Positions 9,921 to 63,837 are shown, counted from the first letter of the stretch. The stretch is 64,000 nucleotides of DNA from a virus (IMGVR_UViG_3300044710_000064:5060-69059); one strand, 5' to 3'. Numbers and translations are program-made. The notes: generated from the letters alone by a model not told the origin.

Positions 9921-9921
9921 C

Positions 9922-15075: not shown

Positions 15076-15104
15076 GGGAGCGTCATGCATAATCGGGAGG
15101 TGCT

Positions 15105-16438: not shown

Positions 16439-16439
16439 G

Positions 16440-17851: not shown

Positions 17852-17856
17852 AAGTT

Positions 17857-18444: not shown

Positions 18445-18459
18445 TTCCCGTCTCCCGCA

Positions 18460-19800: not shown

Positions 19801-19843
19801 TGGGTTCGCTCGTTCTCTTTTCGGGATATCGGGATTCGGACAG

Positions 19844-20514: not shown

Positions 20515-20517
20515 CGT

Positions 20518-20724: not shown

Positions 20725-20726
20725 TT

Positions 20727-20975
20727 TTAAATCTCCTCTGTCTTTGACTTTGGCAACTTATTCATCTTCCTCAAAAAGTAATCCCGCGTCAGTTCTACTG
20801 CCGAGCGAACGTGTCGCTTTAAATATAAATTCTCGATGTGAGCTTCCACTGTATTAACTGCGATGCCGAGTATCACGGCTATCTCTTTTCGAGCCTTGCC
20901 CATCACCATCAACCCCTCTATTTCGAGCTCTCGCGGCGTCAAAACTTCAACATAACCACATCGAGGGCATTTCAT
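20727..20975 (-). CDS. LuxR-family HTH regulator
   Basis: LTPRELEI..LMVMG...KEIAVILGIAVNTVEAHIENLYLK. Confidence 0.88.
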   Translation of the reverse strand: MKCPRCGYVEVLTPRELEIEGLMVMGKARKEIAVILGIAVNTVEAHIENLYLKRHVRSAVELTRDYFLRKMNKLPKSKTEEI

Positions 20976-21036
20976 GATCTCTGAAAGTTGACAGTTTGGA
21001 CCTCCACTTTTGGTTATTCGCGGAGGTCCGGCCTGC

Positions 21037-21378
21037 TCACTGCGCCTTTACTGTTAACCCTGTCGGCGCGGTAGTGGTAGTAGGAATGACTGCCGTAACC
21101 TGATTCGAGTAGCCACTTTCCTCAGCGCCGACGAGCGCTGTCACCACGTAATAATAAGTGGTCGCCGCTGAGACCGTCGAATCTACGTACGTTGTCGAAG
21201 GTGAAAGCGGAGTCGTGGTGATGAGCGTGTAGGGACCGCCCGAAACCGCGGCTCGATACACGTTGTTGCCGGTGATCCCCGGCGTGACGGATTGCGTCCA
21301 ATTAAGCGTGGCTTCGTGCTGCGTCTGGGCGAAAGTCACAGAGCAGAAAAGTGCAAGAGCGAGAAGTACTTTGGTCAT
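21037..21378 (-). CDS. Secreted fibronectin type III domain protein
   Basis: Signal peptide VTFA-Q; LNW...GNNVYR...GGPY..YVD.TV...TYYYVVTA...ESGYSNQV. Confidence 0.85.
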   Translation of the reverse strand: MTKVLLALALFCSVTFAQTQHEATLNWTQSVTPGITGNNVYRAAVSGGPYTLITTTPLSPSTTYVDSTVSAATTYYYVVTALVGAEESGYSNQVTAVIPTTTTAPTGLTVKAQ

Positions 21379-21642
21379 TTATTTATCCTTTGCTGTCGCG
21401 GATGCGACGTTCGAACAATCGGTTTGGTCCGCCCCGGCGCAGACCTTATAGCTATAGACATCGCCGACTTTGAAGATAGTCGCGTCGTCTGTGTAGGTTT
21501 CAGCACTCAATTGAACGTTGGCTATTTTTGACCACGTTCCTTTCGGCCCCTCACGCCAGATATGGCCTATGGCAGTTTCGCTGCCAGACCATTGCCAGGC
21601 GAGCAGGAACGAGAAAAGCAAACCGGCGATTTTCTGTTTCAT
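21379..21642 (-). CDS. Secreted Fn3-like small protein
   Basis: Hydrophobic N-terminus; YTDD..YSYKVCA..CSNVASA. Confidence 0.65.
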   Translation of the reverse strand: MKQKIAGLLFSFLLAWQWSGSETAIGHIWREGPKGTWSKIANVQLSAETYTDDATIFKVGDVYSYKVCAGADQTDCSNVASATAKDK

Positions 21643-24204: not shown

Positions 24205-26049
24205 CTAGTGCTGATACCAGGACAGAAGGGTTACTGCGGGAGCGAGACTTGACTGATTGGCATCGCATGCAAAGCCGACCTGGTTAGGTGAAGCGAGGTA
24301 GTCTGTTCGAGAAATGCTGAATACCTGATAGAAATTCTGCCCATCTGCCGAACCGTAGAACTTGAAGTTTGTTCCGTCATCTTTGACCTGCATCCAGGCG
24401 AGAGAACTTGGAGGGAAATCGTATTGAGAAGTCAAAGAATAACTGGCGCTGAAAGAAGTCGCGCTCGCGTACTTCGCGACGTTCAAGCTGTTGTAGCCGG
24501 TGTTCGACGACAAATAGAACACCACCATCTTACCCGTCCCTGAATCCCGGAAGACCAGCGAAGCCGTTGGAGTATGAGCGCTGCCAGTAGGTGAAAGTTG
24601 GGGAAGTAAAGCAACGGTAATGAAGTAAGGAGTCGAGGGAGCGGTGATTACCCGCGCGTTGATGTCTACCCCGGAGTTCGATTCGCACTGAAGGAATATC
24701 CCGCCGTTCGAAGTGCTCATTGAGGCCGCGTTCTGATTCACCCAGGACCAACTCGGAGTTGTCGGATCGACCATTGGAAAGACGGGACCCCAGGGGACCC
24801 AGACATTACTTGCGCAGCGGAAAACGTAAAAGCTGTTGGTCGGAAACTCAAGATCGCCGTTAGTGCAGGTTCCGGGATAAGAGCCTGACGCGTTTGAGTT
24901 CGTGACGTTGCCGCCGGCAAGACCTGAAGGCACTGCGCCATACTGCACGGTGATTGTGACGTTTGGAGTTCCGACGCTGCCGGTTGTCACAACTTGGTAA
25001 TCTACAAGGTCACCTTGCGCAGCCGTCGCGGTGTGGGTGACGTCGTCGCAGGTTGTGGCAGATGCACCCGACACAGTACAAGTGAGAGATGTGCTCGAAC
25101 CGGCGTCGCGAAACGTCACGGCGACTGAGTTCCCACCACCTGGTGCCGCGCTGAGTTTGACGTACATCGCGCCGATCGTTGCAGCCGTAGGACTCGGAGC
25201 ACTGACGGTAGCCTCAGTTGAGTTCGGAGCGGCATTCCCAAAGATCGGCGCATATTGAGTTCCCGAGAGAGTCGGCGCCGCGGCGTAGTAAGAAGCCACC
25301 CCACCGGAACCTGCGGCGTAAGTCAGCGCGCCAGTGCTATTGACGCCCGTGGCGAACTGACCAGGACCCGCAGTCGAAGGCTGCACGTCGCGTGCCGCGC
25401 CGTCGTCTGACGTGCAGGAAAGTCCACGAATCGTCACTCCATCCGAGGCGACTTCGAACTCCTGCGTTGTTCTGACGTTCAACGTGGGCGAAACTACACA
25501 TATGTGGGTAACGCTGCCACCTGCGACAGTGTAGCCCGTGACTGCTCTTCCTCCCGTACCGTCCTGAAGGAAGGTTAAAGAGAAGTGCTGCCCGGCTTGA
25601 GGGTGCGTGAAGGTGACGCTCGTTACGTTAGCCGTCATCGCGGCCATCTCGCAGCGGTTGCAGGTTGACAAGTCAAACGTCGGAGTAGCGCTGAAACTCA
25701 TCGGCGCGGGCGCCGGACCGGCGAAACTCTTCGACGCACTGAGTTGCCCCGTCGAGCCATTTTGGATCAGGTTAGAATTCCCGATCGCGCTCGAACCGGT
25801 CCACAGCGAGAAGGTATTGGCCGCACCGCTTCCCGTCACACCGCTGATAGAGGTAAAGGGATTCTCAACAATCCCCGCGATGCAGATTCGGTATGTCCCA
25901 TCCGTGATGAGATAGACGTTCCCGGTGCCCGAGCAAGAGCCGGGAGCGCTCGCCTGAGGGGGCCCGGCGGTATGCCAATTAGGATCTCCGCGGCCTTGCG
26001 AAAACACACTTGGAGAAATCAGGACCAGCAATAGCGCAAGTTTTTTCAT
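24205..26049 (-). CDS. Fibre-like protein with Sec signal peptide
   Basis: MKKLALLLVLISPSVFS-Q; QDGTGGR fibre motif; 12 Cys; lectin-like C-terminus (SADGQNF). Confidence 0.7.
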   Translation of the reverse strand: MKKLALLLVLISPSVFSQGRGDPNWHTAGPPQASAPGSCSGTGNVYLITDGTYRICIAGIVENPFTSISGVTGSGAANTFSLWTGSSAIGNSNLIQNGSTGQLSASKSFAGPAPAPMSFSATPTFDLSTCNRCEMAAMTANVTSVTFTHPQAGQHFSLTFLQDGTGGRAVTGYTVAGGSVTHICVVSPTLNVRTTQEFEVASDGVTIRGLSCTSDDGAARDVQPSTAGPGQFATGVNSTGALTYAAGSGGVASYYAAAPTLSGTQYAPIFGNAAPNSTEATVSAPSPTAATIGAMYVKLSAAPGGGNSVAVTFRDAGSSTSLTCTVSGASATTCDDVTHTATAAQGDLVDYQVVTTGSVGTPNVTITVQYGAVPSGLAGGNVTNSNASGSYPGTCTNGDLEFPTNSFYVFRCASNVWVPWGPVFPMVDPTTPSWSWVNQNAASMSTSNGGIFLQCESNSGVDINARVITAPSTPYFITVALLPQLSPTGSAHTPTASLVFRDSGTGKMVVFYLSSNTGYNSLNVAKYASATSFSASYSLTSQYDFPPSSLAWMQVKDDGTNFKFYGSADGQNFYQVFSISRTDYLASPNQVGFACDANQSSLAPAVTLLSWYQH

Positions 26050-49799: not shown

Positions 49800-51701
49800 T
49801 CAAATCTCAAACCTCGCCCTGATCGGTCGCTGTGGCTGAGCCTGCCGGGGTGGTGCGGGAGTATTCGCTATCCGAGCCTTCATCGCTTCCGCCCGGCCTT
49901 CCAGTTCTCGCCACTGCTCATCTTTGAATCGGTCCAACCCCACCACGTAAGCGGCCGCCCGTGCATAGATCCTACAATCGAGCGCTTCGTTACGCGGCCT
50001 GGTCTTCTGCCACTCTGGTTTCGGAAAACCCTTCTCGTACCGGGTCACCAATTGCTCGGCAGTTAGCTGCTGGAAGAACTCGGCGTCGTACGGCGGAAAA
50101 TGACAGAACCCTGGTGGATAGATCTCGCCCCTGTCCAATTCCTCGTCGGTCGGCATGCTCAACATCAGCCATCCGTAAAGCTCCGACTTCAGCAATCCTG
50201 TAGCGACGGGCCATATCTTTAGACCGTTTGCAATTCGTTTCCCGCCAATGGTGACGTCCACGGGCTTTGGATGAGCGACAGGTATATTGCCGCGAGGGCG
50301 CCCGTCAACCGCGATTGCCCTGCCGCCCTGAGCCCGGACCCAAGCGTAAACGTCATTCGTGGCATATCCGCTATCAACGGCCATCTTCGCGATAGGAAGT
50401 TGCAGGCCAGACTCATGAGGAAAGGTCTCATTGAGCAGGACCGCAAGCCTTCGCCAGACCTCCGGCTGTTGAGGATTCCCGTCCAAAACCCTGTAATCGA
50501 TCGACCATGATTCTTTCCCGCGTCCCCAGGCCACGATCTCGGCTTGGAGGTAGGTCTTTTGAACGTCCACTCCCGCAGTAAGAAACAAGCCATTCCACGG
50601 AACGTTACCCCGTTCATACCGCTCTCGTCGAGCTCTTTCGTACAAGAGTTCATCCGCCGGCGCCTCGCCTTTGCCGGTCCAGTTTTCGGCTAGCGACGTA
50701 TTGACGAAGGTTTGCAGGTCTCCCGGATTGTCCTTCTTTGAAAGGAAGTCTAGAACGATGTCCCGAAGCATTTTCCAGGGGCTGTAAAGCTCCGAAATCC
50801 AGAACCCTGCTACGCCGGCAAAGACCGCTTGGGCTCTCCACTCGCACTTCTCTACGGCTGCCCAACGTTCGGCATCGTCCCAGCCGGCATCGCAAAATTC
50901 GCAATGATAGAGAGCCGTCGCCGCTCGTTGCTCGAAGCTCAGGCTTTTGGAATTGTCCCAGCGGACCTGGCTTTCGAACTTCCGCATCAGGGATTGAAAC
51001 GCCCCGCAATGCGGACACGGCACGAAGCATTCCCGCTGATCCGATTGTTCGTAGGCCCGATCGATCTCCGACGCCAAGAATGTGGGGGAGCATGTCAGAA
51101 CTTCCTTCGCCCGGTGACGAAAGGTTGCCAGTCGTTTTCTGGCAAGGGCCAGCGGGTTGCCTTCCAAGGTCGGTTTGTACTTGTCGATCTCGTCGGCAAA
51201 CAGAAAACGGATGGCCCGCCTGGCCACGTTCCGCGGCGAGCCCGTGCCGGCGATCGCCAGCAATCCCCCGGGAAACAACTTCTCCGTAATGGTGCTGTCT
51301 GAGCTCCGGGTCTTCGATTCCGAGAAGAGGCCCCGTAAAACTGGGGTATCCCGGATCATGGGTGCGATTCGTTCCTTCGAGAAGTCTTTGGCGTCGGTAT
51401 CCCCCGGCTGCAGGAGAAGCATGGGGCCCGGATCTTGATGGGCGAAATACCCGATGGCGTTCTCGATTGTGACCGATTTCAGCATCTGGGTGGCTGATTT
51501 GATCACCACCCGGCGGACGCGAGGATCCGAAACCGCGTCCATGGGTTCCCGCTGAAAGGCTAAGGTCGTCCAAGGTCCTGGTTTGGCAGAGGCTTCCGGG
51601 CTCAGATGACGATACCGGTTCGCCCATTCCGACATGGTGAGAACCGGCGGCGGCGCCCAAAGCCGGCGCAATCGCTGTTCGAGCACTTCCCTGGAGATCA
51701 T
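49800..51701 (-). CDS. terL: Terminase large subunit (GpA family)
   Basis: SEWANRYR, KSATQMLKS, LFADEID, CSPT, VPCPHCG, TAGVDVQ, AVDSG, RNEALDC. Confidence 0.96.
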   Translation of the reverse strand: MISREVLEQRLRRLWAPPPVLTMSEWANRYRHLSPEASAKPGPWTTLAFQREPMDAVSDPRVRRVVIKSATQMLKSVTIENAIGYFAHQDPGPMLLLQPGDTDAKDFSKERIAPMIRDTPVLRGLFSESKTRSSDSTITEKLFPGGLLAIAGTGSPRNVARRAIRFLFADEIDKYKPTLEGNPLALARKRLATFRHRAKEVLTCSPTFLASEIDRAYEQSDQRECFVPCPHCGAFQSLMRKFESQVRWDNSKSLSFEQRAATALYHCEFCDAGWDDAERWAAVEKCEWRAQAVFAGVAGFWISELYSPWKMLRDIVLDFLSKKDNPGDLQTFVNTSLAENWTGKGEAPADELLYERARRERYERGNVPWNGLFLTAGVDVQKTYLQAEIVAWGRGKESWSIDYRVLDGNPQQPEVWRRLAVLLNETFPHESGLQLPIAKMAVDSGYATNDVYAWVRAQGGRAIAVDGRPRGNIPVAHPKPVDVTIGGKRIANGLKIWPVATGLLKSELYGWLMLSMPTDEELDRGEIYPPGFCHFPPYDAEFFQQLTAEQLVTRYEKGFPKPEWQKTRPRNEALDCRIYARAAAYVVGLDRFKDEQWRELEGRAEAMKARIANTPAPPRQAQPQRPIRARFEI

Positions 51702-52216
51702 GCCGCATTCGTTTCACTCAACGCGCTCAATGCTTTCCGGACTTCATTGTCGATAATGGCCTGACATTCCAGGACGGAGGTGATAACAGCAACCCGCGGC
51801 GCCACTTCGTTCGCGAGCAGGAGAAGCCGGCCGCGCGCCGAACTGATCATGTTTGCGATGAGCTTTTCGACTTCAGCGACCAGCATTACCTCACCCTTCC
51901 GTTTGGCGAGGTCAAGCTCCTTCTCGAGAACCTTGAGCCATTGGGTTCGGCGGGTAGCTTCGTAGAGAGATTCCGGATCCGCTTTCGAGGAACTCTTACC
52001 GGGACCCTTCCGGAGCTTCTCAGCCGGCTGGACCGCCGGTTTGGGTTCGACCGAAGGGCGCCGCTGCCGATGATCGACGTTCACATCCCAGACGGCTCTC
52101 ACCTTCTCCAGGTCGAAACTGCCGTCCGGTTCTCGTGGAATCCGACCCTTCCGAGCAGCCTTATTGATGGCCGTGTGGGAAACCCCGAGCTCGGCGCCAA
52201 TCTCTCGGGAGGTCAT
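51698..52216 (-). CDS. terS: Terminase small subunit (Nu1-like)
   Basis: N-terminal HTH (IGAELGVSHTAINKA); ELDLAKRKGEV; overlaps terL start. Confidence 0.85.
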   Translation of the reverse strand: MTSREIGAELGVSHTAINKAARKGRIPREPDGSFDLEKVRAVWDVNVDHRQRRPSVEPKPAVQPAEKLRKGPGKSSSKADPESLYEATRRTQWLKVLEKELDLAKRKGEVMLVAEVEKLIANMISSARGRLLLLANEVAPRVAVITSVLECQAIIDNEVRKALSALSETNAA

Positions 52217-52223
52217 GACAGGC

Positions 52224-52331
52224 GGTTTCCAAGGTTTCCAGCCAAACTGGAAACCCGGTTTCCAAGCATGTAGCTGACGGGGTTCCGCAAACATTTTACC
52301 TGCCTGCAGGGGAGGGCCAGGGGAAGGACCC
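52224..52331 (-). other. Putative cos region (cosQ-like GGGTCCT, cosN-like dyad, cosB-like repeats)
   Basis: GGGTCCT at 52331-52325; GCAGGCA-N7-TGTTTGC imperfect dyad; four TGGAAACC copies (one inverted) at 52224-52264. Confidence 0.65.
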
Positions 52332-52349
52332 GAAAACAATAGGAAGGCC

Positions 52350-54449
52350 TCATAAAGCGTTCAGTATCCTGGCCGACCCGTCAACGCTGACAAAGGATCG
52401 GGAGCCGTCCACAATCGCGAGACAGCGTATTGAGCAGTCAACCGGCACAAGCATTCGAATCGGCCCTGTGCCCGTACCGGTGAATTGCGCGTAGATCCAG
52501 TTCGCCAAGCCCTGGAGCGTATCCGCGATAGCGCTTAGTGTCCGCGAAACCATGCGATAAACTGATGCCGGCTGGCTTGGAAGTTGCCCGGGTGTGCTCC
52601 TTGACGTCGCCCTGGCTATGGTGACGCTGCCGATAAGTAGGCTTGCGGTGAAGGAGAGCACATAGGCGCCAGACCGAGCGATCGCAGCGATGCCGTTGAA
52701 ACTAATCGTCGTAGCAGACGCTGCCAGGCCAGTAAGCCTTGCGCTTGCTCCGCCGAACAACGGGTGCGATCCGCTTGTCGCATGCACCGTAGATTTTGCG
52801 GTCGAACCTGCTTGCCCCGCGGTCGCTCCCAAGGCAGTTCGGTCAGTCGCGCCGGCTCGCTGTGCGCCGAACAATCCGGCGGCCGAAGCCGAAGACCTGC
52901 TGCCCGATCGAGTGACGTTCCCACCTGCCGCTAATGTTGAACTAGAATTAGACCTATCGGTACCTCGCAGAGTGGTGGCGGCGAATGCAGCAAGCGAGGC
53001 TCCGAGGCTCAGAATGTAAAGTGATCCTCCCTTAATGGCTACAAGAGCGCCAGAAAAGGCAGACTCAACGGCCGCAATCGCATGAGACGTCAGCTTACTC
53101 ACTCCACCCATTAGTGATGCGCTCGAAGCTACGCCTGACCGAGAGGTTTGAGTTCCCCGCGATCCCATCATTTGAACCGTTGCAGACGAGATCGCGTGGC
53201 TTATGAATCGTATGAATGAGCCAAAGAATGAACCAGAAAGTGCGGCTTCGCTTCGGCCAGTCTGTTTGGAAGCTGTCACTTGGAACGATCCAGTTGATGC
53301 AGGAGTGGTCTTCGCCATTGCTTGCGAATCGATTGCGCTCATGTCTGCCATTGAAGCCGGCCGAGTTTCTAACATCACTCGGGATGTGATTCCGCTGGGT
53401 GTCGTGGTGTTCCCACTCGAAGACCTAGACTCACTGCGCAAAGTGCTCGCTGCTAGCGCCAAGACCGAAGCCGCGACCGTAAATGTATAGGTGACTGCAG
53501 TCTTAGCCACCGTTAAAACCGCATTGAAGGCGTTGGCCACTGCGGCAACACCATGGGATGTGACGCGATTTGTCGAGGTAGCAAAAGAACTAGCCGCCGC
53601 AGTCACGGTATGGGCGACCGCTGAGCCGCGCGCGCCAGCGAACAAACTGGACGCCGCAGACGCAACGAAGCCAGTCATCTTGGATAAATTTGCACCCGCC
53701 GTTAGTGTCGCGGCGGTAGCAACATTGCCCACCGATTTTACGATACCGGCGGCGAAAGCAGCGCTTGACGTGGCCATGCTAACCAAGCCAGCCGTCTTGC
53801 TGCTAATTGCGGCCATCATCGCCGTTGCTGCGGTTTGAAAAAATGAGATCAGCTTGAAACTGGTCGCGCCAAATAGCGAAGTTTTGCTCGTGTTGCTATG
53901 GCTGGTAGCGAAACCGCCGAGAACGGCACGAATAGCGATCGTCGCGGCCTGGGCAACATTCCCGGTCGACCTCAAGATGTTGGCACCGAACATTCCATTG
54001 GAGGCCGCGCTCACAACTCCTGTGGTTTTCGTGCCAATTGCGGCCATCGTCGGCGCTGCAGCCGTTTCGAATAGCGACGTCAATTTGGCCCCGACTGCGC
54101 CGAACAATGAGGTGCCGCTCGCTGCGTTGTGGCTCGTGGAAAACCCGCCAAGATGGGCAATGCCGGCGGCTGCACTTGCATTTCCCGATCGGCCTGTCAG
54201 TTTTAGCCAGGCTGCCGCGCATGTCGATTGGATTGCCGTCAAAGCGCGCGCGGTGAAGCGCGTTGAAGTTGCTGATGGGGCGAGCGCCCTAGCCGTTTTT
54301 GAGGATGAGGTATTCGCCAACCTAGCAGCATTCAGATTCTGCGCACTCGCGGAAGCCGACAGGTAATAAGCTGAGCCTGTAAGCTTTAGGCCGGATTCAA
54401 TGATCGGATTCCCACGAACTCTGCGAGCTTGGTAAATACGGCCGATCAT
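52350..54449 (-). CDS. Ala/Ser/Thr-rich repetitive fibre-like protein
   Basis: 699 aa with short periodic repeats and larger internal duplications. Confidence 0.65.
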   Translation of the reverse strand: MIGRIYQARRVRGNPIIESGLKLTGSAYYLSASASAQNLNAARLANTSSSKTARALAPSATSTRFTARALTAIQSTCAAAWLKLTGRSGNASAAAGIAHLGGFSTSHNAASGTSLFGAVGAKLTSLFETAAAPTMAAIGTKTTGVVSAASNGMFGANILRSTGNVAQAATIAIRAVLGGFATSHSNTSKTSLFGATSFKLISFFQTAATAMMAAISSKTAGLVSMATSSAAFAAGIVKSVGNVATAATLTAGANLSKMTGFVASAASSLFAGARGSAVAHTVTAAASSFATSTNRVTSHGVAAVANAFNAVLTVAKTAVTYTFTVAASVLALAASTLRSESRSSSGNTTTPSGITSRVMLETRPASMADMSAIDSQAMAKTTPASTGSFQVTASKQTGRSEAALSGSFFGSFIRFISHAISSATVQMMGSRGTQTSRSGVASSASLMGGVSKLTSHAIAAVESAFSGALVAIKGGSLYILSLGASLAAFAATTLRGTDRSNSSSTLAAGGNVTRSGSRSSASAAGLFGAQRAGATDRTALGATAGQAGSTAKSTVHATSGSHPLFGGASARLTGLAASATTISFNGIAAIARSGAYVLSFTASLLIGSVTIARATSRSTPGQLPSQPASVYRMVSRTLSAIADTLQGLANWIYAQFTGTGTGPIRMLVPVDCSIRCLAIVDGSRSFVSVDGSARILNAL

Positions 54450-54451
54450 GG

Positions 54452-56101
54452 TTAGTGAAACGCCACCACCATTACACTGTTGCTTGATGCATTCTGCTGT
54501 GCCGTCCAGCCAAAGTTGATCTGTGTGGTGTTGCCCGACCAGTAATGCGCTGCGACATCGCCATTGGTCATATCGTTTGCATCACCGCCGCAGACACCTG
54601 CTGTCGTCACCGTGCAGGCATTCGTCAGAGTAGGGCCTGGATAATCCAGGACTACGCCAGTCGGCTGCGAACTGGTCAAGTAAGGGCCGTTTCCGGCCGA
54701 CCCTATCGCGATGAACAGATCGGCGGAATTCCCAGGCGTTGCAAGGGGTAAGCCAGTACATGTGACATCGCTGCCCGAAGTTCCTTGGCAATTCCCTGCG
54801 CCCGTGCCCGTGCTTATGGCGTTAAAGACGGCGCTGGAAGTTACCTGAGTGCTTCCGCTCCCCGCGCTAAAGCCGGTATCAAGAGCCGTGACATTCGTGC
54901 AGTAGAATCTGATGAGATCCACATTCGCGCCGCCGCTTACCGTGGTTACCACAAATGTGTTCGGGTTAGAGATCGTGACCCCCAGGGAGTAGAACACTTT
55001 CGGGTTACCGCCGCCATTCGAGACGGCCGTGTACGTGTCGCTGTTGCTATCCGTAATAGAGCTGAGGCTCGCCGCGTCGTCGGTTATGATGACGCCAGTT
55101 GTGTTCGTCGGGCACCCTACATTGGTGACCAGCGTGATCGCGCCACCCGTCATGGTCGCAGAGGACACTAGAACAGCTTTGCCGGCCGATGGAGCTGAAC
55201 CACCCGAACCAGGCTTGAAAGCCGCCGCCATGATCGTGAAGGAATCATGTGTTGACTGAGAAATTGTTAATTGCGGGGTGAAGGTCGTGCCGGTCGCACT
55301 GCAGTAAAATTCGGCGTGGCCCGCGTAGGTAGACTCGTCAACCAGTGTGCAGTTGGAAGGCACCGTGATCGAATTCCAGATGTCTGAATAGTCAATGTTG
55401 CCGAAGATTGTTTCGTCGTCCACCTCAACATAAACGAGGTCGCCGATTACCACCGTGAGCGCCGTACCAGAGATATTAGGCGCAGTATTGTTGACCGGGA
55501 CCACGGCGGTCTTGCACGAACTTGTACGGAGGGCGCTCGTGGTGGCCACATTGTAAAAGTTTCCAATGTTGAAGTATGAATCACTAATCTTATCCGGGTG
55601 CGTTTCCGTAACCTGCGTTACTCCAGACGCCGGCGGCACAAAGTTAGCGGAGTAGTAAATGCCGTGATCGGCTCCGTTTGCCACTGCCAAGCCAGCGTCT
55701 TTGCAGCCAGAGCCAGCGGTGAATACCGCGTTCCACGTATTGCCGGTGCCGTTATCCGTAAAGGTTGGAGCGCACGGCGCTGTACACGAATGCGGATAGC
55801 CGTTTCCGGTCGTCGGGTTGTTTGGCCATGCACCCGACATAATGACAAGTGATCCAGATGTGACCGCGTGAGGAGAACCAGCGGGATCAAGCGCAAAGAC
55901 GTTCCCGTTCACTCCCGTGGTTGAGCCACCTCTTCCCTTGTCGGTGATGTTGTTCCCAAAAAATTGGTTTAGGGTTGGCGTGCCCGCGCTCGAAACGACC
56001 CCGAGTTTGTGCTTCTTTCTGAAAAGCACATCCTCGATCGGGTCCTGTGGAACGAGTGCTAGCCCTATCAGCATGAGGCTGAGAATGGAAAAGAAATTCA
56101 C
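54452..56101 (-). CDS. Beta-rich Cys-paired protein with signal-like N-terminus
   Basis: MNFFSILSLMLIGLALVP-Q; 12 Cys; TDNGTGNTW and TDSNSDTY motifs typical of fibre-tip domains. Confidence 0.65.
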   Translation of the reverse strand: MNFFSILSLMLIGLALVPQDPIEDVLFRKKHKLGVVSSAGTPTLNQFFGNNITDKGRGGSTTGVNGNVFALDPAGSPHAVTSGSLVIMSGAWPNNPTTGNGYPHSCTAPCAPTFTDNGTGNTWNAVFTAGSGCKDAGLAVANGADHGIYYSANFVPPASGVTQVTETHPDKISDSYFNIGNFYNVATTSALRTSSCKTAVVPVNNTAPNISGTALTVVIGDLVYVEVDDETIFGNIDYSDIWNSITVPSNCTLVDESTYAGHAEFYCSATGTTFTPQLTISQSTHDSFTIMAAAFKPGSGGSAPSAGKAVLVSSATMTGGAITLVTNVGCPTNTTGVIITDDAASLSSITDSNSDTYTAVSNGGGNPKVFYSLGVTISNPNTFVVTTVSGGANVDLIRFYCTNVTALDTGFSAGSGSTQVTSSAVFNAISTGTGAGNCQGTSGSDVTCTGLPLATPGNSADLFIAIGSAGNGPYLTSSQPTGVVLDYPGPTLTNACTVTTAGVCGGDANDMTNGDVAAHYWSGNTTQINFGWTAQQNASSNSVMVVAFH

Positions 56102-56102
56102 T

Positions 56103-57245
56103 TTACTCGGAAATGTTCTTGATTTCCAGCCAGCGGAACGTGACGTTGATCGTTCCGCCCGTAAGCGCCGCGTTGCCGAGATTCACGCAAACACCTTGAC
56201 CGGTTCCGATCAGTATCTGGGGTTTCAATCGCCCATTCCAAATGAAAAGATCATCAGGAACCGTGGAGGCAGAAACCAAAAATGCTGTATATGCTTGATG
56301 AATTGTGCCGACTGAAGCGCCGGCGGTCGGCCCCGTTCCCGTGTAGCTGACCGGCGTTGTGCTTGCGGCCGCGTAGTTGGTTACATCCCCGCGGACCGCA
56401 GTCATGTTGGCGGAAGTTCCGCCACTTTCCGCAGCGGAGTGCCGGATAAGCTGCACATTGACTAAGCCAGCAGTCGTCTGAATCCCGCTGACATCTGCCT
56501 CGTAGAGGAGTACGGTGTTGGTTGAATTGCCATAAATGCAGGCGTTGTCCGTGGTACTGGATGCCGCGAAATTGGCGCTGGCTTCGTAACTCGCCGGTCG
56601 AAGCCCTGGGATCAAGCTGGTCCAAAGCGTACCATCCGTTCCCACATTGAGCGCGGCATCCCGGCCTTGAGTTTCTGCCGAGCCATTGGACGGATCGGTT
56701 TGGATAATGCCGGGGAGTTCTCCGAGGCGATTAGTTCCCGCCGCCGCGCCGTTGTTCGAAAGTGCGCCATTCACGTTGGGAGTATTGGCCACCGTGACCG
56801 GCAGGGCAACTGCATAACAGACGCAGGTCGCGTAGGGCGTCACATTTGCGGTGCCCGTGATAGCTGTCGTCAACTTCAAAACGAGCTTGTAAGCGCCCGC
56901 CATGTAAATCAGAAATTGCTTGTTCGTCGATGCCTGCAAAGTGTAGGGCATCGAGACTTGAGCATATGTCGAACTCGTCGGATCGACGACCTGCCACGCT
57001 TGCAGGTTTACGAGGTTTCCGTCTCCTGGATCAGCTTGAAACTGAATCGCGCCGCCTGTTAGCGTCGTCGTCTGATCGAGGGTTACCAGCACGTGAGTGC
57101 CGGATGCCGCCTGGGCGAGTGTTTGCGTGGTGTTATTGGAGGTCGACGATGTCCAAACTGCTCCCGTATAGGGCGTGTTGCCGCACCCGGAAGCTTGCGC
57201 AAAGACAACCGAAGCGCCGAGCAAAATGAGAACGAGCAGCTTCAC
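56103..57245 (-). CDS. Beta-sandwich virion-like protein with Sec signal peptide
   Basis: MKLLVLILLGASVVFA-Q; C-terminal TFRWLE. Confidence 0.65.
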   Translation of the reverse strand: MKLLVLILLGASVVFAQASGCGNTPYTGAVWTSSTSNNTTQTLAQAASGTHVLVTLDQTTTLTGGAIQFQADPGDGNLVNLQAWQVVDPTSSTYAQVSMPYTLQASTNKQFLIYMAGAYKLVLKLTTAITGTANVTPYATCVCYAVALPVTVANTPNVNGALSNNGAAAGTNRLGELPGIIQTDPSNGSAETQGRDAALNVGTDGTLWTSLIPGLRPASYEASANFAASSTTDNACIYGNSTNTVLLYEADVSGIQTTAGLVNVQLIRHSAAESGGTSANMTAVRGDVTNYAAASTTPVSYTGTGPTAGASVGTIHQAYTAFLVSASTVPDDLFIWNGRLKPQILIGTGQGVCVNLGNAALTGGTINVTFRWLEIKNISE

Positions 57246-57246
57246 C

Positions 57247-57741
57247 TTATTCGATCCACTTGGCGTAGCAGATCGTGTTGACGCTCGAGCCGAAAGTCAC
57301 GCGGATGCGTCCGAACTTCCCAGCGCGCACCTTGAATTCCTCACCCTGGGTAAATGGAAAGACGTACTGATTTGTCGGAGCGATAAGTTGGATATCGCCG
57401 TTTCGCACCGTTGTGATTGAGCCTTCCGAGCTTGAGGTGTAACCCGATGCCGATGTGCCCAGCGTTAAGAGACTCGCGTCGTCGTTCGCGTCTCCGAATT
57501 TGGTGATATCGGCCGCAGCATAAGCCGTCACTGTGGCCGCAACGTCAGTTTCGATCAATTCGACAACGCCGGGTGTTGCCGCGGCCGATCCATCGAAAGA
57601 GATTCCCCATTCGGTTATCAGGATTGAGGTATTGGACGGAGGCGCAAGCTGAAGAAGCGTCTTAATCGACGTTCCGGTAGCGATCTTGGCAAAAGCAGCC
57701 GTGGTCTGCATCGGCCCGTTGAACGCTTTGAAGATTTTCAT
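57247..57741 (-). CDS. Beta-sandwich virion-like protein
   Basis: KTLLQL...ITEWGISFDG...VVEL..; C-terminal YAKWIE. Confidence 0.65.
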   Translation of the reverse strand: MKIFKAFNGPMQTTAAFAKIATGTSIKTLLQLAPPSNTSILITEWGISFDGSAAATPGVVELIETDVAATVTAYAAADITKFGDANDDASLLTLGTSASGYTSSSEGSITTVRNGDIQLIAPTNQYVFPFTQGEEFKVRAGKFGRIRVTFGSSVNTICYAKWIE

Positions 57742-57765
57742 CGAATCGAGATCAACGCTGTAAAA

Positions 57766-59931
57766 CTACTTGCATTGAATCTGGGATAGCCGTCCAACCG
57801 TGCACGTTTCGCCGAGAATGCCAGTCCAGTTGACAGTGGGCCAGACGAGGGAAGCGGCCTTCACCACCCCATTGAGAAGCGTCGAGTTGACGCCAAGATA
57901 GGACAGGATCGGCAGCATTGCCGTGATGTTGGATTGCAGCCGGGCGATCGTTGCGGCATCATTCGCCGAGTTTATCTGTGCGGCCGTGAGTTGCTGAAAA
58001 TACTGCAACCAGATAGTCGTCCACGTGGTCAGTTCCTGACTGAATTGAGAGCCGAGTTCAACGGAATTGGCATATTCGCCGGGCCAGAAGGTCAGCACAT
58101 CAGGAGTCGTGTCTACATAATTGCCGCTCTGCAGCCCCTTCGCCAACCATTCGAGCGCCAAGCCGGCCGTGCCCATCAAAATATTCGTCCCGTTCCAATT
58201 CAAATTGTTATTGAGGTAAGAAAGCGAGTAGGCCCAATCGATTGGATAGGTCCCCTTTGCCATCCCGTTGCCGTCATTGAGGATCAGTTGTAGCTGGTAC
58301 CACGCAAACGAAAGATAAACGTGCGCCGCGGCTGTTCCATTAGCAAGCCCAGGGGATGGACGGGGAACATCGGCCATGAATGGCGAACCCATAAATGGCA
58401 TGTTGCTGAACCAAGCTCGGCTAGCAGCCTTAGGTCCGAATGCAACACTTGCCGTGGACTCCAGACCGAATTCCTGGTTCAGTTCCCACTGTTTGACTTC
58501 AGACCAAAGTCGATAGGAATAAAATTCAGCTACATACGTTGAGTTTTGCCATTGCGGCGAAGTTGCAGGAAGCTGAACCTGCGCGCGAAACGCCCAGTCA
58601 TCTGCCAGCCAATAAGCAAAATCCCCGGACTTAATGGCAGCAGCATAAGCTGCGGAAGTCCCAGGCGCCAAATCCGCGCGAGTTTTGAGGTAGTTCTTGT
58701 ACAAAGAACTAGAGGTCCACAAAGCGGCGCCGAAGCCATCGAGAGGATGAACGATGGGAAGCCAACGATTCCAAGTCGGAAGTTGAAGCGCAATCGGTGT
58801 TTCTCGAGCGTTGAGGTAAGAGCCTGCCGCCAAGACGGTCGGAGGTCCTGTCAATGTCAGGTACGGCAGCATCGCCGCATCATTAGGAAGCACCGCGTTC
58901 AATCCCGCACCGGCCGCCCAATTTGTGACTGGCTTAGAATCGATTCCTGGGCCTGGTTGATAAGGAGGATTCCATGGGAGGCCTGGCGCTGGCGTTGCGA
59001 GCGATCGGATGTAGCTCGCGATTTGCAAGCCTTGTTGCGCGGTCAAACCATGAAAAACTGCGCGGGCCGCGATAGAGGTATTGGAATAATTAAAATACTT
59101 TAGGTCACGGCCATCCTGCGTGTGGCAATCCGCGCAGGAGGCGATGATGTTAGACGTGGGGCCGACCATCTGGGTATGGAGTGTGTTCTCGGCTCGCCAA
59201 GCTGCCAGGCCGGCCGCGATATCTGCGGCGTCATTTAGAGGGGGCGTCCAATTCGCCGGATTGTCCCACACGAAAGTAGATGCCGGGATCAGATTACCGC
59301 CGGAGTTGGCGACGTTGAAGGCCAATACCCTGAAGCCGGAAGTAATGCCATCGGTCCCATTAAATCTGAACGCGATTTGATTGGCGCCCACGGTCACTGC
59401 GCCAGGCAGCGGAAGGCTCAGATTGAATGTCGAGAACCCTCCTCCGATTCCACCGAACTGATTGGCGTACTGGTCTGTCAGTGTCACGGCGGGCGTACTG
59501 ATAGGCGTCCAGGCTCCCTGGTTCACCCGTACGCTCATCTCTGTCTGATATCTCAGGTTATTAACCTGCATGGTGAGCGTTAAGGAACCTGTCAGATCCA
59601 CCCCGGGTGGAATGCCAAACTTCACGGTGCTCGTGGTTCCGTTGGCTCCGACGACCTCGACCGGAAGCGTGATCGTGTCCGCCACCAGCGTAATGGCCTG
59701 ACTGAAAATTGTTTGACTGCCGTCTACAGCCGTGACGGTGACCGTCTGCTGGTAGGGATTCGTCGCGGGGGCTGTATACAAGCCGGCGCTCGATACCGTC
59801 CCTACCGCCGGAGTAACGGACCAAACCACAGTGGGCGCCCCCAGTTGGATGGTTTGACCAGACGTCAATAGAATCGGGACTTGGGCGACCGCGCCCCATA
59901 CCAGCAACGTGAACAGGAAGCAAACTCTCAT
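57766..59931 (-). CDS. Secreted protein with c-type heme-binding motif
   Basis: Signal peptide GAVA-Q; Ig-like GTVSSAGLYTAP; CADCH at 59122-59136. Confidence 0.75.
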   Translation of the reverse strand: MRVCFLFTLLVWGAVAQVPILLTSGQTIQLGAPTVVWSVTPAVGTVSSAGLYTAPATNPYQQTVTVTAVDGSQTIFSQAITLVADTITLPVEVVGANGTTSTVKFGIPPGVDLTGSLTLTMQVNNLRYQTEMSVRVNQGAWTPISTPAVTLTDQYANQFGGIGGGFSTFNLSLPLPGAVTVGANQIAFRFNGTDGITSGFRVLAFNVANSGGNLIPASTFVWDNPANWTPPLNDAADIAAGLAAWRAENTLHTQMVGPTSNIIASCADCHTQDGRDLKYFNYSNTSIAARAVFHGLTAQQGLQIASYIRSLATPAPGLPWNPPYQPGPGIDSKPVTNWAAGAGLNAVLPNDAAMLPYLTLTGPPTVLAAGSYLNARETPIALQLPTWNRWLPIVHPLDGFGAALWTSSSLYKNYLKTRADLAPGTSAAYAAAIKSGDFAYWLADDWAFRAQVQLPATSPQWQNSTYVAEFYSYRLWSEVKQWELNQEFGLESTASVAFGPKAASRAWFSNMPFMGSPFMADVPRPSPGLANGTAAAHVYLSFAWYQLQLILNDGNGMAKGTYPIDWAYSLSYLNNNLNWNGTNILMGTAGLALEWLAKGLQSGNYVDTTPDVLTFWPGEYANSVELGSQFSQELTTWTTIWLQYFQQLTAAQINSANDAATIARLQSNITAMLPILSYLGVNSTLLNGVVKAASLVWPTVNWTGILGETCTVGRLSQIQCK

Positions 59932-59947
59932 GCGCCCGGACTGGTTC

Positions 59948-60880
59948 CTATGTTCCGCCTGCGGTGCAGCTCAGCGTATAAGTTGTCTGAATTGAATCGG
60001 TGGTCTGCGTGATCGTGATTGGCGCCGCCGTGAGGCCAGACGACGAAGACGGCGTAGACGCCGGGGCATTGGCGGTGTTCATCCAGCGCCGATCCCAGAG
60101 TGTCCCCGAAGAACTCGCGCTCAGAATGCCCCACTCGATGATGGTCAAGGGCGGAGTCGTCCCAGTGAAAACGACCGTTGCAATCGACTTGTACTGATTC
60201 GAAGTCGGGTTGGATTGCGTGCCAGCGACGCGAGTAATGCTCGACACTTCCGTGGTCAGAGCCGTGTCCGCTTGACCGTTCAGGAGCTGGGCTGCGTTGG
60301 TTCCTCCACCGAAAGAGGATCCTCCACCGACTGAGCCGAGCAGCGTGTAGGTGTTGGTCGTTACTGGGCTAATTTCCCAAATTCCATTGATACCAGTGAT
60401 ACCTGTAATACCCGAGAGCTTGATGATATCGTTCAGGAAAAATGGGTGAGCCGATTGGGTAACCACGATCGGCGTAGCCGCCGTCGCCGCGGTGGGCGAA
60501 CTGGTCGAGCCGTGAACGTCACCAGTCCCGTAGGTGTGGTAATTGAAATTGATGAGCGGATTCGAGTTCGATACAAAAGTCGTGGCCAGATAGTTGATGC
60601 CTGCCGAGGTCACGATCCCGACCATTGGGAGTCCCGCAGTAATGCGCCACAGTTTCATCGCTTCCTGAGGGCAACATTCGCACCACATCACGAAAGTGGC
60701 GAACGTCATGGCGGCAAAGAACTTCACGTGCCGGCGAAGATGCTCCCAAAGGTTCCGCATCCAGGAGATAGACTTTCGAATTACCCGCGTGTGCGGCGCG
60801 AAGTCCTGGATGCTCCCGTCGCCACGGATCAGCCGATGCTGAACGGAAGCGCTAAACTCCATGTATCCGGCGAATTGCAT
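59948..60880 (-). CDS. Fibre-anchor-like structural protein with FCCH-like insert
   Basis: TSAGINYLA..GTG...ADTALTTEV..RVAG...IIEWGI...GTLWDR; insert TPIVVTQSAH...INGIWEI. Confidence 0.6.
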   Translation of the reverse strand: MQFAGYMEFSASVQHRLIRGDGSIQDFAPHTRVIRKSISWMRNLWEHLRRHVKFFAAMTFATFVMWCECCPQEAMKLWRITAGLPMVGIVTSAGINYLATTFVSNSNPLINFNYHTYGTGDVHGSTSSPTAATAATPIVVTQSAHPFFLNDIIKLSGITGITGINGIWEISPVTTNTYTLLGSVGGGSSFGGGTNAAQLLNGQADTALTTEVSSITRVAGTQSNPTSNQYKSIATVVFTGTTPPLTIIEWGILSASSSGTLWDRRWMNTANAPASTPSSSSGLTAAPITITQTTDSIQTTYTLSCTAGGT

Positions 60881-60934
60881 AGTTCGCTCCTTTGAACGCT
60901 GAACGGTGGAAATGTTTGTGGAAAAAGAGGAAAA

Positions 60935-61171
60935 CTAACTGGAGGAAGGAGTGGTGACCAGATGGAAGACGTCGAGCTTGGCCGCTAGAGTCTGAAGGCC
61001 GGAACTAAACGTGAGGAAGTCATTCCACATCTTTGCCTGGTCGGCTGCGGGAACAGTTGCAAGGACCTTCTCGAGCAGGGAGAAGCCGGCAATGATCGCG
61101 TCCTCGTACGGGCCGTGAATAGCCGATGGAATCGCAGGAAGATTGGAAAGTGGAGAACTTTGAGTGGCCAT
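60935..61171 (-). CDS. Hypothetical protein
   Basis: In operon, tight spacing. Confidence 0.55.
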   Translation of the reverse strand: MATQSSPLSNLPAIPSAIHGPYEDAIIAGFSLLEKVLATVPAADQAKMWNDFLTFSSGLQTLAAKLDVFHLVTTPSSS

Positions 61172-61177
61172 TTGGAT

Positions 61178-61762
61178 CTACGGTTGCGTGAACCAAATCG
61201 TTGTATGGCCCGTGAAACCGTTAACGGCTTCGTGGAATGTGAATTCTCCACGCCCATCCGGGTCCGCATAAGATTGACCGTTGGCGAGCGACGTTCCGTT
61301 GGGCAGCATGTTCCCAATAGCCTGCCAAAATCCGCTTCCGAGAGTAACTCCCACAAGCGAAGTAGCCGGCACGGGAACAACCGGGACCGGTGGCGGATTG
61401 TACGGCGGATAGTCTGCGGGATTCAGGCTAACTTTAATCGAACCTGATGCCGGATTGTTCGGATCGTAGGCTGCAGCTCCGGGCTGCGATACTCCGGGAG
61501 CCAGTGTGATCGGGCCCATAAGAGCGGATGGGACCCAAGTGTACCCGTAGGCAATGCGTTGGCTCATCACCAGATACGGGTCCCAACCCCAGACCATGAT
61601 CGGAACGTCAATGGTATAGCCCTGCGTGGCGAGTGTCATCGCCTGAGTGGAACGCTGGGTGAAGTCCTGGATCTGTGCCAGCGCTTGAATAGCTGGGGGC
61701 TGGTGGGCCCAGTAGACCGCATCAAAAGCCGCCTCGGTGAGTGGCGCTGAAGTCGTTCCCAT
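61178..61762 (-). CDS. Conserved hypothetical protein
   Basis: YWAHQP...GYTIDVPIMVWGWDP...GYTWVPSAL; recalled from Acidobacteriota proteins, unverified. Confidence 0.7.
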   Translation of the reverse strand: MGTTSAPLTEAAFDAVYWAHQPPAIQALAQIQDFTQRSTQAMTLATQGYTIDVPIMVWGWDPYLVMSQRIAYGYTWVPSALMGPITLAPGVSQPGAAAYDPNNPASGSIKVSLNPADYPPYNPPPVPVVPVPATSLVGVTLGSGFWQAIGNMLPNGTSLANGQSYADPDGRGEFTFHEAVNGFTGHTTIWFTQP

Positions 61763-61764
61763 GG

Positions 61765-62082
61765 CTACTGGTTAGCCCTCACCCAAGCCTGCACCGCCTC
61801 AACTTCCAGCCAAGGCGAACGCACGGAGCGCTTGGAGCCCGTCAGGCAATTTCCCTGCACCTGAATATGAGCCGAGAAGGGGGGAACGCTATTGGCATTT
61901 GAGCTGCCGTTGGCGATCAAACCGAAAGCTTCGACGGAAGCTTGAAATGGCGTCTCGCCTCCGACGTGCACCGGAGTCTGATCCGGAGTCTTGGAGTCCG
62001 AATACCGCACGAGAGCGACCTCAAATCCGATTCCGACGAGGGCCGTAGTGAGGCCCGTGATTCCCATTACTGTGATGTCCAT
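61765..62082 (-). CDS. Hypothetical protein
   Basis: RBS AAGGAG. Confidence 0.6.
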   Translation of the reverse strand: MDITVMGITGLTTALVGIGFEVALVRYSDSKTPDQTPVHVGGETPFQASVEAFGLIANGSSNANSVPPFSAHIQVQGNCLTGSKRSVRSPWLEVEAVQAWVRANQ

Positions 62083-62110: not shown

Positions 62111-62620
62111 TTACGCCGCAAGCATTCCGCTTTCAACTTCCACGGATACACCACGGTTGAACAATTCCACGCCTACGATGAAGCGCAGCTTGTTCTTGAT
62201 TTCGACCAGCCGGCCCCGGGTCCCAGCAAACGGTCCCCGGGTAATGGTGACTTGCTGACCCACTTTCAGAAGGTTCCAAGGCTCCGCCAATCCACTGTCG
62301 ACTACAATCCGGAGGTTCTCGATTTCGATGTGGGGAACTGTGGCCGGGGTAGATCCGAAGCTCAGAATGTCGATGACGCCGGGAACATTGAGAACGGCGC
62401 CACGCTCCTCGATTACGAACCGCCCGAAGACGTAGCCGGTGAACAGGGCTCTCCGGATTTCGGTCGGCTTCCAGTGGGAATAACGCCGCATCTCAGAGTA
62501 TTGGGGATTGAAAACCTCAATATCGCGCTGGTAAATCCGCTCAGAAACTACAGATTCTATTCCAGCTTGCACCCGCAATACGTACCACGGGCTACCTGCT
62601 TCAAGAGAATGCGTTGCCAT
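62111..62620 (-). CDS. NusG-paralogue antiterminator (UpxY/RfaH-like)
   Basis: NGN domain WYVLRV..G.E, LFTGYVF; KOW domain VGQQVTITRGPFAG..G. Confidence 0.9.
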   Translation of the reverse strand: MATHSLEAGSPWYVLRVQAGIESVVSERIYQRDIEVFNPQYSEMRRYSHWKPTEIRRALFTGYVFGRFVIEERGAVLNVPGVIDILSFGSTPATVPHIEIENLRIVVDSGLAEPWNLLKVGQQVTITRGPFAGTRGRLVEIKNKLRFIVGVELFNRGVSVEVESGMLAA

Positions 62621-62681: not shown

Positions 62682-62711
62682 ATTGTATGCGGAGAAACAT
62701 TGCGGTGTCAA
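62682..62711 (-). promoter_or_regulatory. Sigma70 promoter for the late arm
   Basis: TTGACA-N18-TACAAT on the - strand, about 60 nt upstream of the nusG-like ATG. Confidence 0.8.
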
Positions 62712-63369: not shown

Positions 63370-63837
63370 TCAGTTCTTCACGGTCAACGGATCGGAGTTT
63401 ACGGCTTTCTTGCCGGTGACGCCTTCGAGGCCGGCCAGGATGCCGCGGTAGTCGCTCTTGTCGCATTGCATCGCAAAGCCGCCTTTTTGTTCGCCATTGG
63501 CCCAGGTCACTCCAATGAAGTGTTTCTTCGATTTGGAGAGGGCGAGTAACGCGCCTATGCCGAGCGATACGATCGCCAGCCCGATAGCCGCCCCGACACG
63601 TCGGTGGACATCCTGCCCGTAACTTATTTCCGTTATCCATGCGGTAGGGATTTTGGCAATGTTCTCATCCTTGGTTTCCAGCCTAAGTTCTGCCGTATCG
63701 ATATACAACTTCATCCCTTTTCCGGCCTTAACGTCCGGGAGCGAGCCGCCGTCGTATCGGATATTATGGCCGCTGTCTCCTGCGACGGTGGAAAATGGCA
63801 CGAAGAAGCAAAGAGCGATAGCGATCAGTTTTTTCAT
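63370..63837 (-). CDS. Secreted/membrane hypothetical protein (PH-like fold?)
   Basis: Signal peptide; YDGGSLP...ITEISYGQDVHRRVG, TM, KSKKHFIG. Confidence 0.75.
   Translation of the reverse strand: MKKLIAIALCFFVPFSTVAGDSGHNIRYDGGSLPDVKAGKGMKLYIDTAELRLETKDENIAKIPTAWITEISYGQDVHRRVGAAIGLAIVSLGIGALLALSKSKKHFIGVTWANGEQKGGFAMQCDKSDYRGILAGLEGVTGKKAVNSDPLTVKN

Follow-up and report, generated by a model that had tools for sequence, protein, structure and literature searches.

A phage late-operon module that is probably a mosaic of a cytoplasmic cassette and exported cargo genes

In phage lambda, the lysis genes occupy the interval between the late antiterminator and terS. Other phage genes encode Sec-exported proteins: Lom and Bor of lambda, Cor of phi80 and Llp of T5 are small outer-membrane proteins or lipoproteins, often with promoters of their own. 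XepA of prophage PBSX, as described in PMC6834076, belongs to a lytic cassette and appears late after induction; it travels beyond the membrane by export, does not occur in particles and has a cytotoxic effect on Bacillus. The same account reports that YomS alone is inactive. Finally, a Q-rule, by which leader cleavage exposes glutamine (Gln), has been described for Bacteroidetes (PMC5837995), and phages of Porphyromonas gingivalis carry uncharacterised proteins with Q-rule leaders for which envelope modification has been proposed (PMC10367356). Here we compare with these systems a run of nine open reading frames (ORFs), g1-g9, at 52350-62082 (-) of a 64,000-nucleotide (nt) stretch of viral DNA (IMGVR_UViG_3300044710_000064:5060-69059). 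This stretch, referred to as the window, covers the right end (64 kb) of an IMG/VR virus record of 69,059 bases; other loci or contigs compared with it carry L-numbers.

A first-pass annotation had proposed that the nine genes form one new system, possibly an appendage with a shaft assembled in the cytoplasm and tips matured in the periplasm. Our conclusion is that the region is a mosaic in the first part of the late operon, in which exported cargo genes have been inserted in a cytoplasmic cassette (g4-[g5]-g6-[g7]-[g8]-g9, brackets marking the exported products), and not a single machine; we give this reading a probability of roughly 0.6. The evidence that carries it is the independent distribution of the two sets of genes. 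Relatives of g4 (74% identity) and g6 (57%), a 392-residue (aa) protein and an 830-aa g9-like repeat protein are found together in L059 and L107-L110 without g5, g7 or g8. Relatives of g4, g6 and g9 were absent from all 24 viral loci with a g7 relative in an iterative search, and none of the 24 genomic neighbourhoods fetched around cellular g5 relatives contained any other module gene. Given that the cassette is complete without the exported genes, and that the exported genes occur elsewhere without the cassette, the proposal of one appendage is not supported. The features are as follows.

62682-62711 (-): best sigma-70-like match of the region, TTGACA-18-TACAAT, 11/12, a consensus match only, 5' of the antiterminator gene
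62111-62620 (-): NusG/KOW late antiterminator-like protein, 169 aa (PF02357, E 5.6e-13; phrog_6386, E 2.2e-24); context, outside the module
61765-62082 (-): g1, 105 aa, hydrophobic N-terminal stretch, relatives not found
61178-61762 (-): g2, 194 aa, without a family match
60935-61171 (-): g3, 78 aa, gene call uncertain (a 131-aa ORF overlaps)
59948-60880 (-): g4, 310 aa, cytoplasmic cassette member without signal peptide (alignment and model)
57766-59931 (-): g5, 721 aa, predicted to be exported, leader AVA-Q, CXXCH
57247-57741 (-): g6, 164 aa, cytoplasmic cassette member without signal peptide, EWGISFDG motif
56103-57245 (-): g7, 380 aa, predicted to be exported, leader VFA-Q, two-domain model
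54452-56101 (-): g8, 549 aa, probably exported, hydrophobic leader, TPTL motif, 12 Cys
52350-54449 (-): g9, 699 aa, Ala/Ser/Thr/Gly-rich repeat protein, cassette member without signal peptide
52224-52264 (no strand assigned): four TGGAAACC copies, three direct and one inverted, within 41 nt, just upstream of the probable terS start
51698-52339 (-): terS-like protein as the longest ORF, probable start at 52216; context

The cytoplasmic backbone of the module (g4, g6 and g9) looks like a copy of a cassette that is common in uncultivated tailed phages. We found 64 near full-length homologues of g4 and fetched 40 metagenome and 19 IMG/VR loci with g4 relatives. Where at least 1500 nt of sequence was available downstream of g4 (17 loci), a g9-like ORF lay downstream in 15 and g6 in 5. 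Relatives of g6 occur in 317 IMG/VR stretches, and among the 57 g6 loci with enough flank, 46 have, within 3.5 kb downstream, an ORF that begins with a MARFGR-type sequence and is at least 200 aa long. Counting this motif among all ORFs of at least 200 aa gave 57/684 in g6 loci against 1/902 in control loci. The g9 protein is related to these 'MARFGR...' repeat proteins, and its relatives contain tandem repeats; with 20% Ala, 15.5% Ser, 11% Thr and 10% Gly, it was rightly described at first sight as a long A/S/T-repeat protein. The usual order of the cassette is a small collar-like protein of the g4 type, g6, a variable protein X ending ..AVxRAS.., and a MARFGR repeat protein. In L059 and L092 head genes precede it and the head-tail adaptor follows; in L078 it comes after the major tail protein and in L164 after the tape measure; L115 and the window have it before terS and TerL, and in L062 it follows the tail-tip genes, 5 kb after a homologue of the window phage's 1554-aa tail protein. 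In all loci compared it lies among structural genes on the same strand. Judging from these gene orders, the g4-g6-X-g9 cassette relocates as a whole from one position to another in structural gene clusters.

What the cassette makes is harder to say, and we suggest only tentatively that it is a virion-associated accessory structure, either fibre or decoration. The model of g4 (predicted local distance difference test, pLDDT, 73.8; predicted template modelling score, pTM, 0.73) has an N-terminal hairpin and helices, followed by a beta-sandwich with an inserted FCCH-like barrel, and a TLWDRRW motif is invariant in the family. Searching BFVD with this model returned 'Tail fiber' entries of Stenotrophomonas phage Ponderosa (E 1.5e-5) and Xanthomonas phage phi31 (E 2.6e-4), with template modelling (TM) scores of only 0.2-0.36; phrog_584 (E 0.015) and E1_FCCH (E 0.056) fell below threshold. 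The initial description of g4 as fibre-anchor-like thus has weak fold matches behind it (E 1.5e-5, TM 0.35).

There is a second explanation of the cassette, namely that it is not structural and is instead an enzymatic or host-directed accessory system of many phages. We consider this unlikely, but would not be greatly surprised by it. The 80 g6 relatives kept are 50-63% identical to g6 in otherwise unrelated phages and have many invariant charged residues (Asp, Glu and Arg), the genome position of the cassette is not fixed, and no PHROG structural family is matched. Against this, the cassette is always embedded among structural genes of the same strand, the g4 fold yields 'tail fiber' and baseplate matches, and long repeat proteins would be typical of fibres. 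The Atlas clusters of g6 are viral at 0.97-0.98. No match to g6 was found among 50,697 deposited phage genomes, nor in 201 genomes drawn from the phylum to which one Bryobacteraceae genome belongs.

Turning to the exported products, leaders were scored by a simple heuristic script (n-h-c leader, small residues at -3/-1) and not by SignalP. By this measure the leaders of g5 (GAVA-Q) and g7 (VVFA-Q) are canonical with Gln at +1, in agreement with the first reading of them. The third case, LVP-Q of g8, is partly upheld: the protein does begin with a hydrophobic leader, and Gln follows the leader in at least 9/16 homologues, but the cleavage site is non-canonical and the n-region has no basic residue. 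A leader is present in 14/16 g8 homologues, and a leader followed by Gln in 13/16 aligned rows of the g7 family and in 12/23 of the g5 family, cellular homologues included. The possibility, raised at the outset, that homologues would mostly lack signal peptides is thus not borne out, and it is very probable from these N-termini that g5, g7 and g8 are Sec-exported. Also present, as annotated, are the tail-region leaders VFS-Q at 24205-26049 (-) and TFA-Q at 21037-21378 (-), both of which leave Gln at +1. Leader-like N-termini were seen in four ORFs beyond the module, at 24205-26049, 21037-21378, 21379-21642 and 63370-63837, all (-). The 614-aa one among them, a tail-region protein predicted to be exported and encoded directly after the 1554-aa tail protein, matches phrog_19068 (a family of unknown function), and its homologue adjoins g4 in L069.

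In a crude count over leader-like ORFs, a candidate site was followed by Gln in 6/12 in Acidobacteriota genome loci, 7/20 in Bacteroidota and 3/12 in Myxococcota, and in 21/35 in the g7 viral loci, these being small numbers from the same rough predictor. The occurrence of Gln at +1 in cellular homologues as well means that it is no marker of a phage appendage; as a habit it seems to belong to the host lineage and not to the module.

The g5 protein consists of the leader, an immunoglobulin (Ig)-like N-terminus, a sandwich resembling a carbohydrate-binding module (CBM), the CXXCH motif, and a large conserved C-terminal region with two conserved Cys at its end. The motif (C266, C269, H270) is invariant in 23/23 aligned rows, which together with the canonical leader agrees with the early description of g5 as a secreted CXXCH protein. 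Matches to the family numbered 1743 among 8000 scored candidates, with 40-57% identity and on contigs of up to 2.56 Mb, and relatives occur in Bryobacteraceae, Terriglobia, Myxococcota, Bacteroidota and others, so that g5 appears to belong to a mainly cellular family. Related leader-bearing proteins of 692-2257 aa are encoded in eight other IMG/VR contigs. Scanning IMG/VR with the single g5 or g7 protein gave nothing; relatives surfaced when alignments were used. The public gene call for g5 (P0001) is 671 aa long, starting about 50 residues downstream and losing the leader. Since homologues align from residue 1, the longer form of 721 aa is more likely. Although g5 has the haem-attachment motif of a c-type cytochrome, and a few homologues have been named cytochrome c553 or mono/dihaem cytochrome c by the Joint Genome Institute (JGI), no Pfam or NCBIfam cytochrome family matched it at E up to 0.1, and its profile found no match among sequences in the PDB. 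We also observed an invariant WNPPYQPGPG block in the family, with N-terminal additions that are often Ig-like, CBM-like or dockerin-like; this large uncharacterised family of secreted CXXCH proteins has no curated model for its conserved core.

For g7, 95 homologues were found. The conserved unit is the last ~210 residues, which often stand alone behind their own leader or end proteins of up to 1764 aa. Modelling from a 16-row alignment (pLDDT 71.9) gave two beta-rich domains: residues 19-143 are predicted to form an XepA-C/YomS-like sandwich, C2-like and superposable on YomS and on the C-domain of XepA, and residues 214-380 a TNF/C1q-like jelly roll ending W-x-E, with a conserved linker of low pLDDT (146-215) between them. 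Within the family, W182 is kept in at least 90% of rows and E184 is invariant. The first-pass annotation had paired g6 and g7 as beta-sandwich proteins with similar W-x-E ends; this holds for g7, with its two modelled sandwich domains, but in the alignment of the g6 family the W-x-E end is not conserved. Comparing g6 with the g7 C-domain gave E 0.023 by hmmsearch, E 0.11 by hhalign with the single g6 sequence, and E 0.0016 at a probability of 16% for family against family, values that are suggestive of kinship and that we do not treat as homology. A relationship of g4 to the g7 C-domain was also considered, and the comparison gave nothing. A phmmer search with g7 against all PDB sequences gave 0 matches at E up to 10, the g7 C-domain profile gave nothing meaningful against the PDB, and g7 was not found in the five Acidobacteriota genomes searched.

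In the 24 viral loci, g7-type genes sit among structural genes, between head and tail genes, and not in lysis cassettes; examples are L038, between the major head and major tail proteins, and the myovirus L036, between the major head protein and the sheath. They are usually accompanied by one to three more leader-bearing proteins, and the jelly roll also occurs without a leader in L052-L057. Eight large exported proteins of the g7 type were scanned against Pfam with no result. Two side observations belong here. In L050 (2860-16050), L046 (3829-14767), L099 (278-10302) and L104 (1949-11465) there are ~10-13 kb of consecutive leader-bearing proteins of 800-2257 aa, with no Pfam domain in those scanned. 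In a phage with the g6 cassette, a leaderless 172-aa protein (L183 2521-3039) directly after the putative major head protein ends ..MTWQEVSAF, resembling the W-x-E end of the g7 jelly roll.

The fold of g7 raises the question of whether the exported proteins are lysis or egress helpers in a lambdoid lysis slot, with g7 as an XepA-like, envelope-active late protein. We think this improbable. The module does lie between the late antiterminator and terS, g7 is modelled with the XepA/YomS fold, and XepA itself is a cytotoxic member of a lytic cassette (PMC6834076). In addition, the ORFs scanned (26 window ORFs singly, 44 more as a batch, and 10 ORFs in 5 kb outside the window, record bases 1-5200, L058) yielded no Pfam lysozyme, amidase, transglycosylase or peptidase family, though an unrecognised endolysin is weak evidence. 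However, no holin, endolysin or spanin family was recognised in g1-g9 (Pfam, PHROG, NCBIfam), the relatives of g7 are flanked by head and tail genes, the small membrane proteins that are candidates for lysis are encoded elsewhere (19417-21642), and the only domain of this kind in g7 is YomS-like, which is inactive alone according to PMC6834076. One ORF at 19844-20221 (-), downstream of the tail genes, encodes a 125-aa protein with an N-terminal membrane segment and a coiled-coil-like remainder, with weak DUF1664/DUF948 matches; it is possibly holin- or spanin-like.

The third exported product, g8, has 45 representatives in 1.84 billion proteins. Its 12 Cys, counted as annotated, vary pairwise in homologues (106/110 in 9/17 rows, 133/196 in 15/17 and 330/401 in 12/17), a pattern that fits disulfides. 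A g8 relative follows a g7 relative in just 1/24 loci (L051), and the g8 profile had no match in the g4 and g6 loci. Searches of PDB sequences with the g8 and g4 profiles and the g6 sequence gave nothing meaningful. We asked whether g8 might be an exported relative of the proteins encoded after g4 or g6 elsewhere, for which hhalign gave E 2.4e-17; this value was caused by the true g8 homologue of L051, and without it E was 0.036. Kinship of g8 with protein X of the cassette was likewise rejected for now (hhalign E 0.015, probability 3%).

These results bear directly on the single appendage, in which g4, g6 and g9 would build a cytoplasmic shaft and g5, g7 and g8 would be its periplasm-matured tips. 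It can be said for this arrangement that all nine genes are co-oriented and tightly packed, that L112 and L115 also hold leader-bearing proteins inside the cassette, that g8 stands in the slot of protein X, and that some exported types have leaderless counterparts: the jelly roll of g7 in L052-L057, and a leaderless 534-aa protein of L116 that is 31% identical to an exported 496-aa protein of L046. The complete cassettes without an exported gene, the 24/24 g7 loci without cassette genes, the mainly cellular distribution of g5 and the insignificant score of g8 against protein X all argue against it. Moreover, from what is established about tailed-phage assembly, we know of no route by which periplasmic subunits could join a tailed particle assembled in the cytoplasm. 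We therefore regard the appendage as very improbable. The L116 protein (10712-12316) lies beside a g4 relative, and its L046 counterpart (10471-11961) beside a g7 relative.

With respect to transcription, the late genes are all on the minus strand, and the nine co-oriented genes of the annotation exist as ORFs with intergenic gaps of 1-54 nt. Consensus scans of the region returned 5 promoter-like sites (5.5 expected) and 6 terminator-like sites (14.3 expected), none of them flanking g5, g7 or g8 on the coding strand, and GC content (0.54-0.58) and GC content at third codon positions (GC3, 0.57-0.68) are the same throughout as in other late genes. We infer that g1-g9 are one tightly packed, co-transcribed late unit. 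Given this packing, and the absence of promoter- or terminator-like sites above chance, separate expression in lysogeny, which had been raised as a possible objection, is not indicated.

This matters for a further interpretation, that the exported proteins are lysogenic-conversion or superinfection-exclusion cargo that changes or masks surface receptors. The phage is probably temperate, given an integrase family match in the record; each exported protein is encoded among late structural genes; and presence and absence differ between related cassettes, as they do for classical morons (g5, g7 and g8 are in the window and not in L059 or L107-L110, and L112 has a different set). The envelope modification proposed for the Q-rule leader proteins of Porphyromonas phages (PMC10367356) points the same way. 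On the other hand, neither a promoter or terminator of their own nor the distinct composition of a classical moron was found for the exported genes, their products look like large soluble multidomain proteins and not like small outer-membrane proteins or lipoproteins, and the searches showed no similarity to known exclusion proteins, nor any PADLOC match. On balance we find conversion cargo doubtful.

Returning to the mosaic, we propose the following mechanism. The genes g5, g7 and g8, lying between the backbone genes, would be translated from the late transcript that also carries the virion genes. Their products would cross the inner membrane, with signal peptidase I removing the Sec-type leaders and mostly leaving an N-terminal Gln, and would function in the periplasm or at the cell surface rather than as part of the particle. 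Late export of this kind has a precedent in XepA of PBSX, the C-terminal fold of which appears to be common with g7. Their most likely job would be to bind or remodel envelope or exopolysaccharide components around release, which could assist egress or prevent re-adsorption. An early suggestion that the module encodes host-envelope proteins made late in infection remains compatible with the data for g5, g7 and g8.

Several observations weigh against the mosaic, or against parts of it. The exported genes are placed non-randomly: in the closest relative, L112, g4 and g6 are followed by a leader-bearing protein with the g7 N-domain (52% identity) and there are two more leader-bearing proteins, in L115 a leader-bearing protein comes directly after g4, and in L069 the homologue of the exported 614-aa tail-region protein follows g4. 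There may consequently be a looser functional tie between the cassette and the exported proteins. The g8 gene occupies the exact slot of protein X in other cassettes, and other phages have domains of the exported proteins without a leader. As for the cassette as a virion structure, the conservation of g6 across otherwise unrelated phages, with its many invariant charged residues, would suit an enzyme, or a factor directed at the host, more than a decoration specific to the capsid, and the 'tail fiber' matches of g4 have low TM (0.35). No match to g6 was found in the 50,697 phage genomes and the 201 further genomes, and no characterised phage anchors a structural reading. Lastly, the leaders were called by a simple script and that of g8 is atypical.

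A more ambitious possibility is a late, Sec-dependent 'egress secretome' in phages of diderm hosts with Gln at +1, in which large exported proteins of the g5, g7 and g8 types, whose relatives reach 1764-2257 aa, are made from the middle of structural operons, the XepA-like g7 type acts on the envelope, and g8 is an exported replacement of X, so that g4-g6-g8-g9 works across two compartments. Since the scanned ORFs yielded no recognisable endolysin family, the exported proteins could be part of an unconventional release mechanism. We offer the idea as speculation and judge it distinctly improbable. A literature search on Acidobacteria prophages with signal-peptide proteins in structural modules found nothing relevant.

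The surroundings of the module were also characterised. Beyond g9 follow terS, a lambda-type large terminase, portal, protease, major head protein, a 2004-aa protein in tape-measure position and tail genes, the terS/terL genes next to the module having GpA domains (Pfam). The placement of the module between antiterminator and cos is hence right as regards its neighbours, with NusG/KOW upstream and terS/terL downstream, but cos was not located in the window. Relatives of terS align from residue 41-51 onwards only. The window has five TGGAAACC copies, four of them in the cluster at 52224-52264, which may be a candidate terminase-binding or cos-adjacent site. None of g1-g9 matched a Pfam, PHROG, NCBIfam or PADLOC family above threshold (for the PADLOC anti-phage defence models, 0 families at E up to 0.01), g2 gave nothing meaningful against PDB sequences, the module had no megablast match in deposited phages, and an all-against-all BLAST within the window revealed no paralogy among module proteins. 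Eight loci with a related TerL (L002-L009) have no module gene. In the early region, 1-19400 (+), a batch Pfam scan that did not resolve individual ORFs recorded DUF5131, DUF2303, a Dam methylase, a Mom-like protein, integrase, Sipho_Gp157 and several helix-turn-helix proteins.

These findings open part of the phage 'dark matter' to tests, namely a four-gene cassette (g4-type, g6, X and MARFGR-repeat protein) present in hundreds of uncultivated phage contigs, the most conserved member of which, g6, has no match in the deposited phage genomes. They also point to families of large proteins, predicted to be Sec-exported, that sipho- and myoviruses encode inside their late structural operons; one such family has the predicted fold of XepA, a protein whose own function is still unsolved. 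The Gln-at-+1 habit appears to extend from Bacteroidetes to Acidobacteriota-linked proteins and their phages. Should the exported proteins aid release or mask receptors, this would widen the view of the ways in which phages of soil diderms exit or shield their hosts.

How, then, does the locus compare with the systems described at the outset? Like the genes of Lom/Bor, Cor and Llp, which encode Sec-exported phage proteins beside or inside structural clusters, the exported genes lie among structural genes; those proteins are small, whereas the ones here have 380-721 residues and several domains, with no promoter- or terminator-like sites of their own that stand out. The comparison with tail fibres and the N-domains of tail-collar fibres relies on the low-TM BFVD matches of g4, and on L062, where g4 comes after the tail-tip homologue and a 1545-aa protein; however, no Pfam or PHROG fibre family is above threshold for g4, which in other phages lies beside head genes. 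With XepA (PBSX) and YomS (SPbeta) of Bacillus subtilis (PDB 6i56 and 6i5o) the g7 N-domain appears, from its model, to have a C2-like sandwich fold in common, without sequence similarity by phmmer and with 13-19% identity in structural alignment. The common domain is N-terminal in g7 and C-terminal in XepA, and the second domain is a predicted TNF/C1q-like jelly roll in g7 and a second C2-like sandwich in XepA. Furthermore, pentameric disc assembly marks the XepA/YomS family, and XepA is cytotoxic and belongs to a lytic cassette, whereas the host of g7 is probably a diderm and no lysis family was found in its module or in any ORF scanned. The Bacteroidetes Q-rule and the P. gingivalis phage proteins are alike in predicted Gln exposure, in phage and host proteins alike; the nearest cellular relatives here, though, are Acidobacteriota, a phylum with 0 occurrences in the main text of the Q-rule paper (PMC5837995). 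Taken together, the module plays on known themes, exported phage cargo genes and mobile cassettes of the structural region, built here from uncharacterised families.

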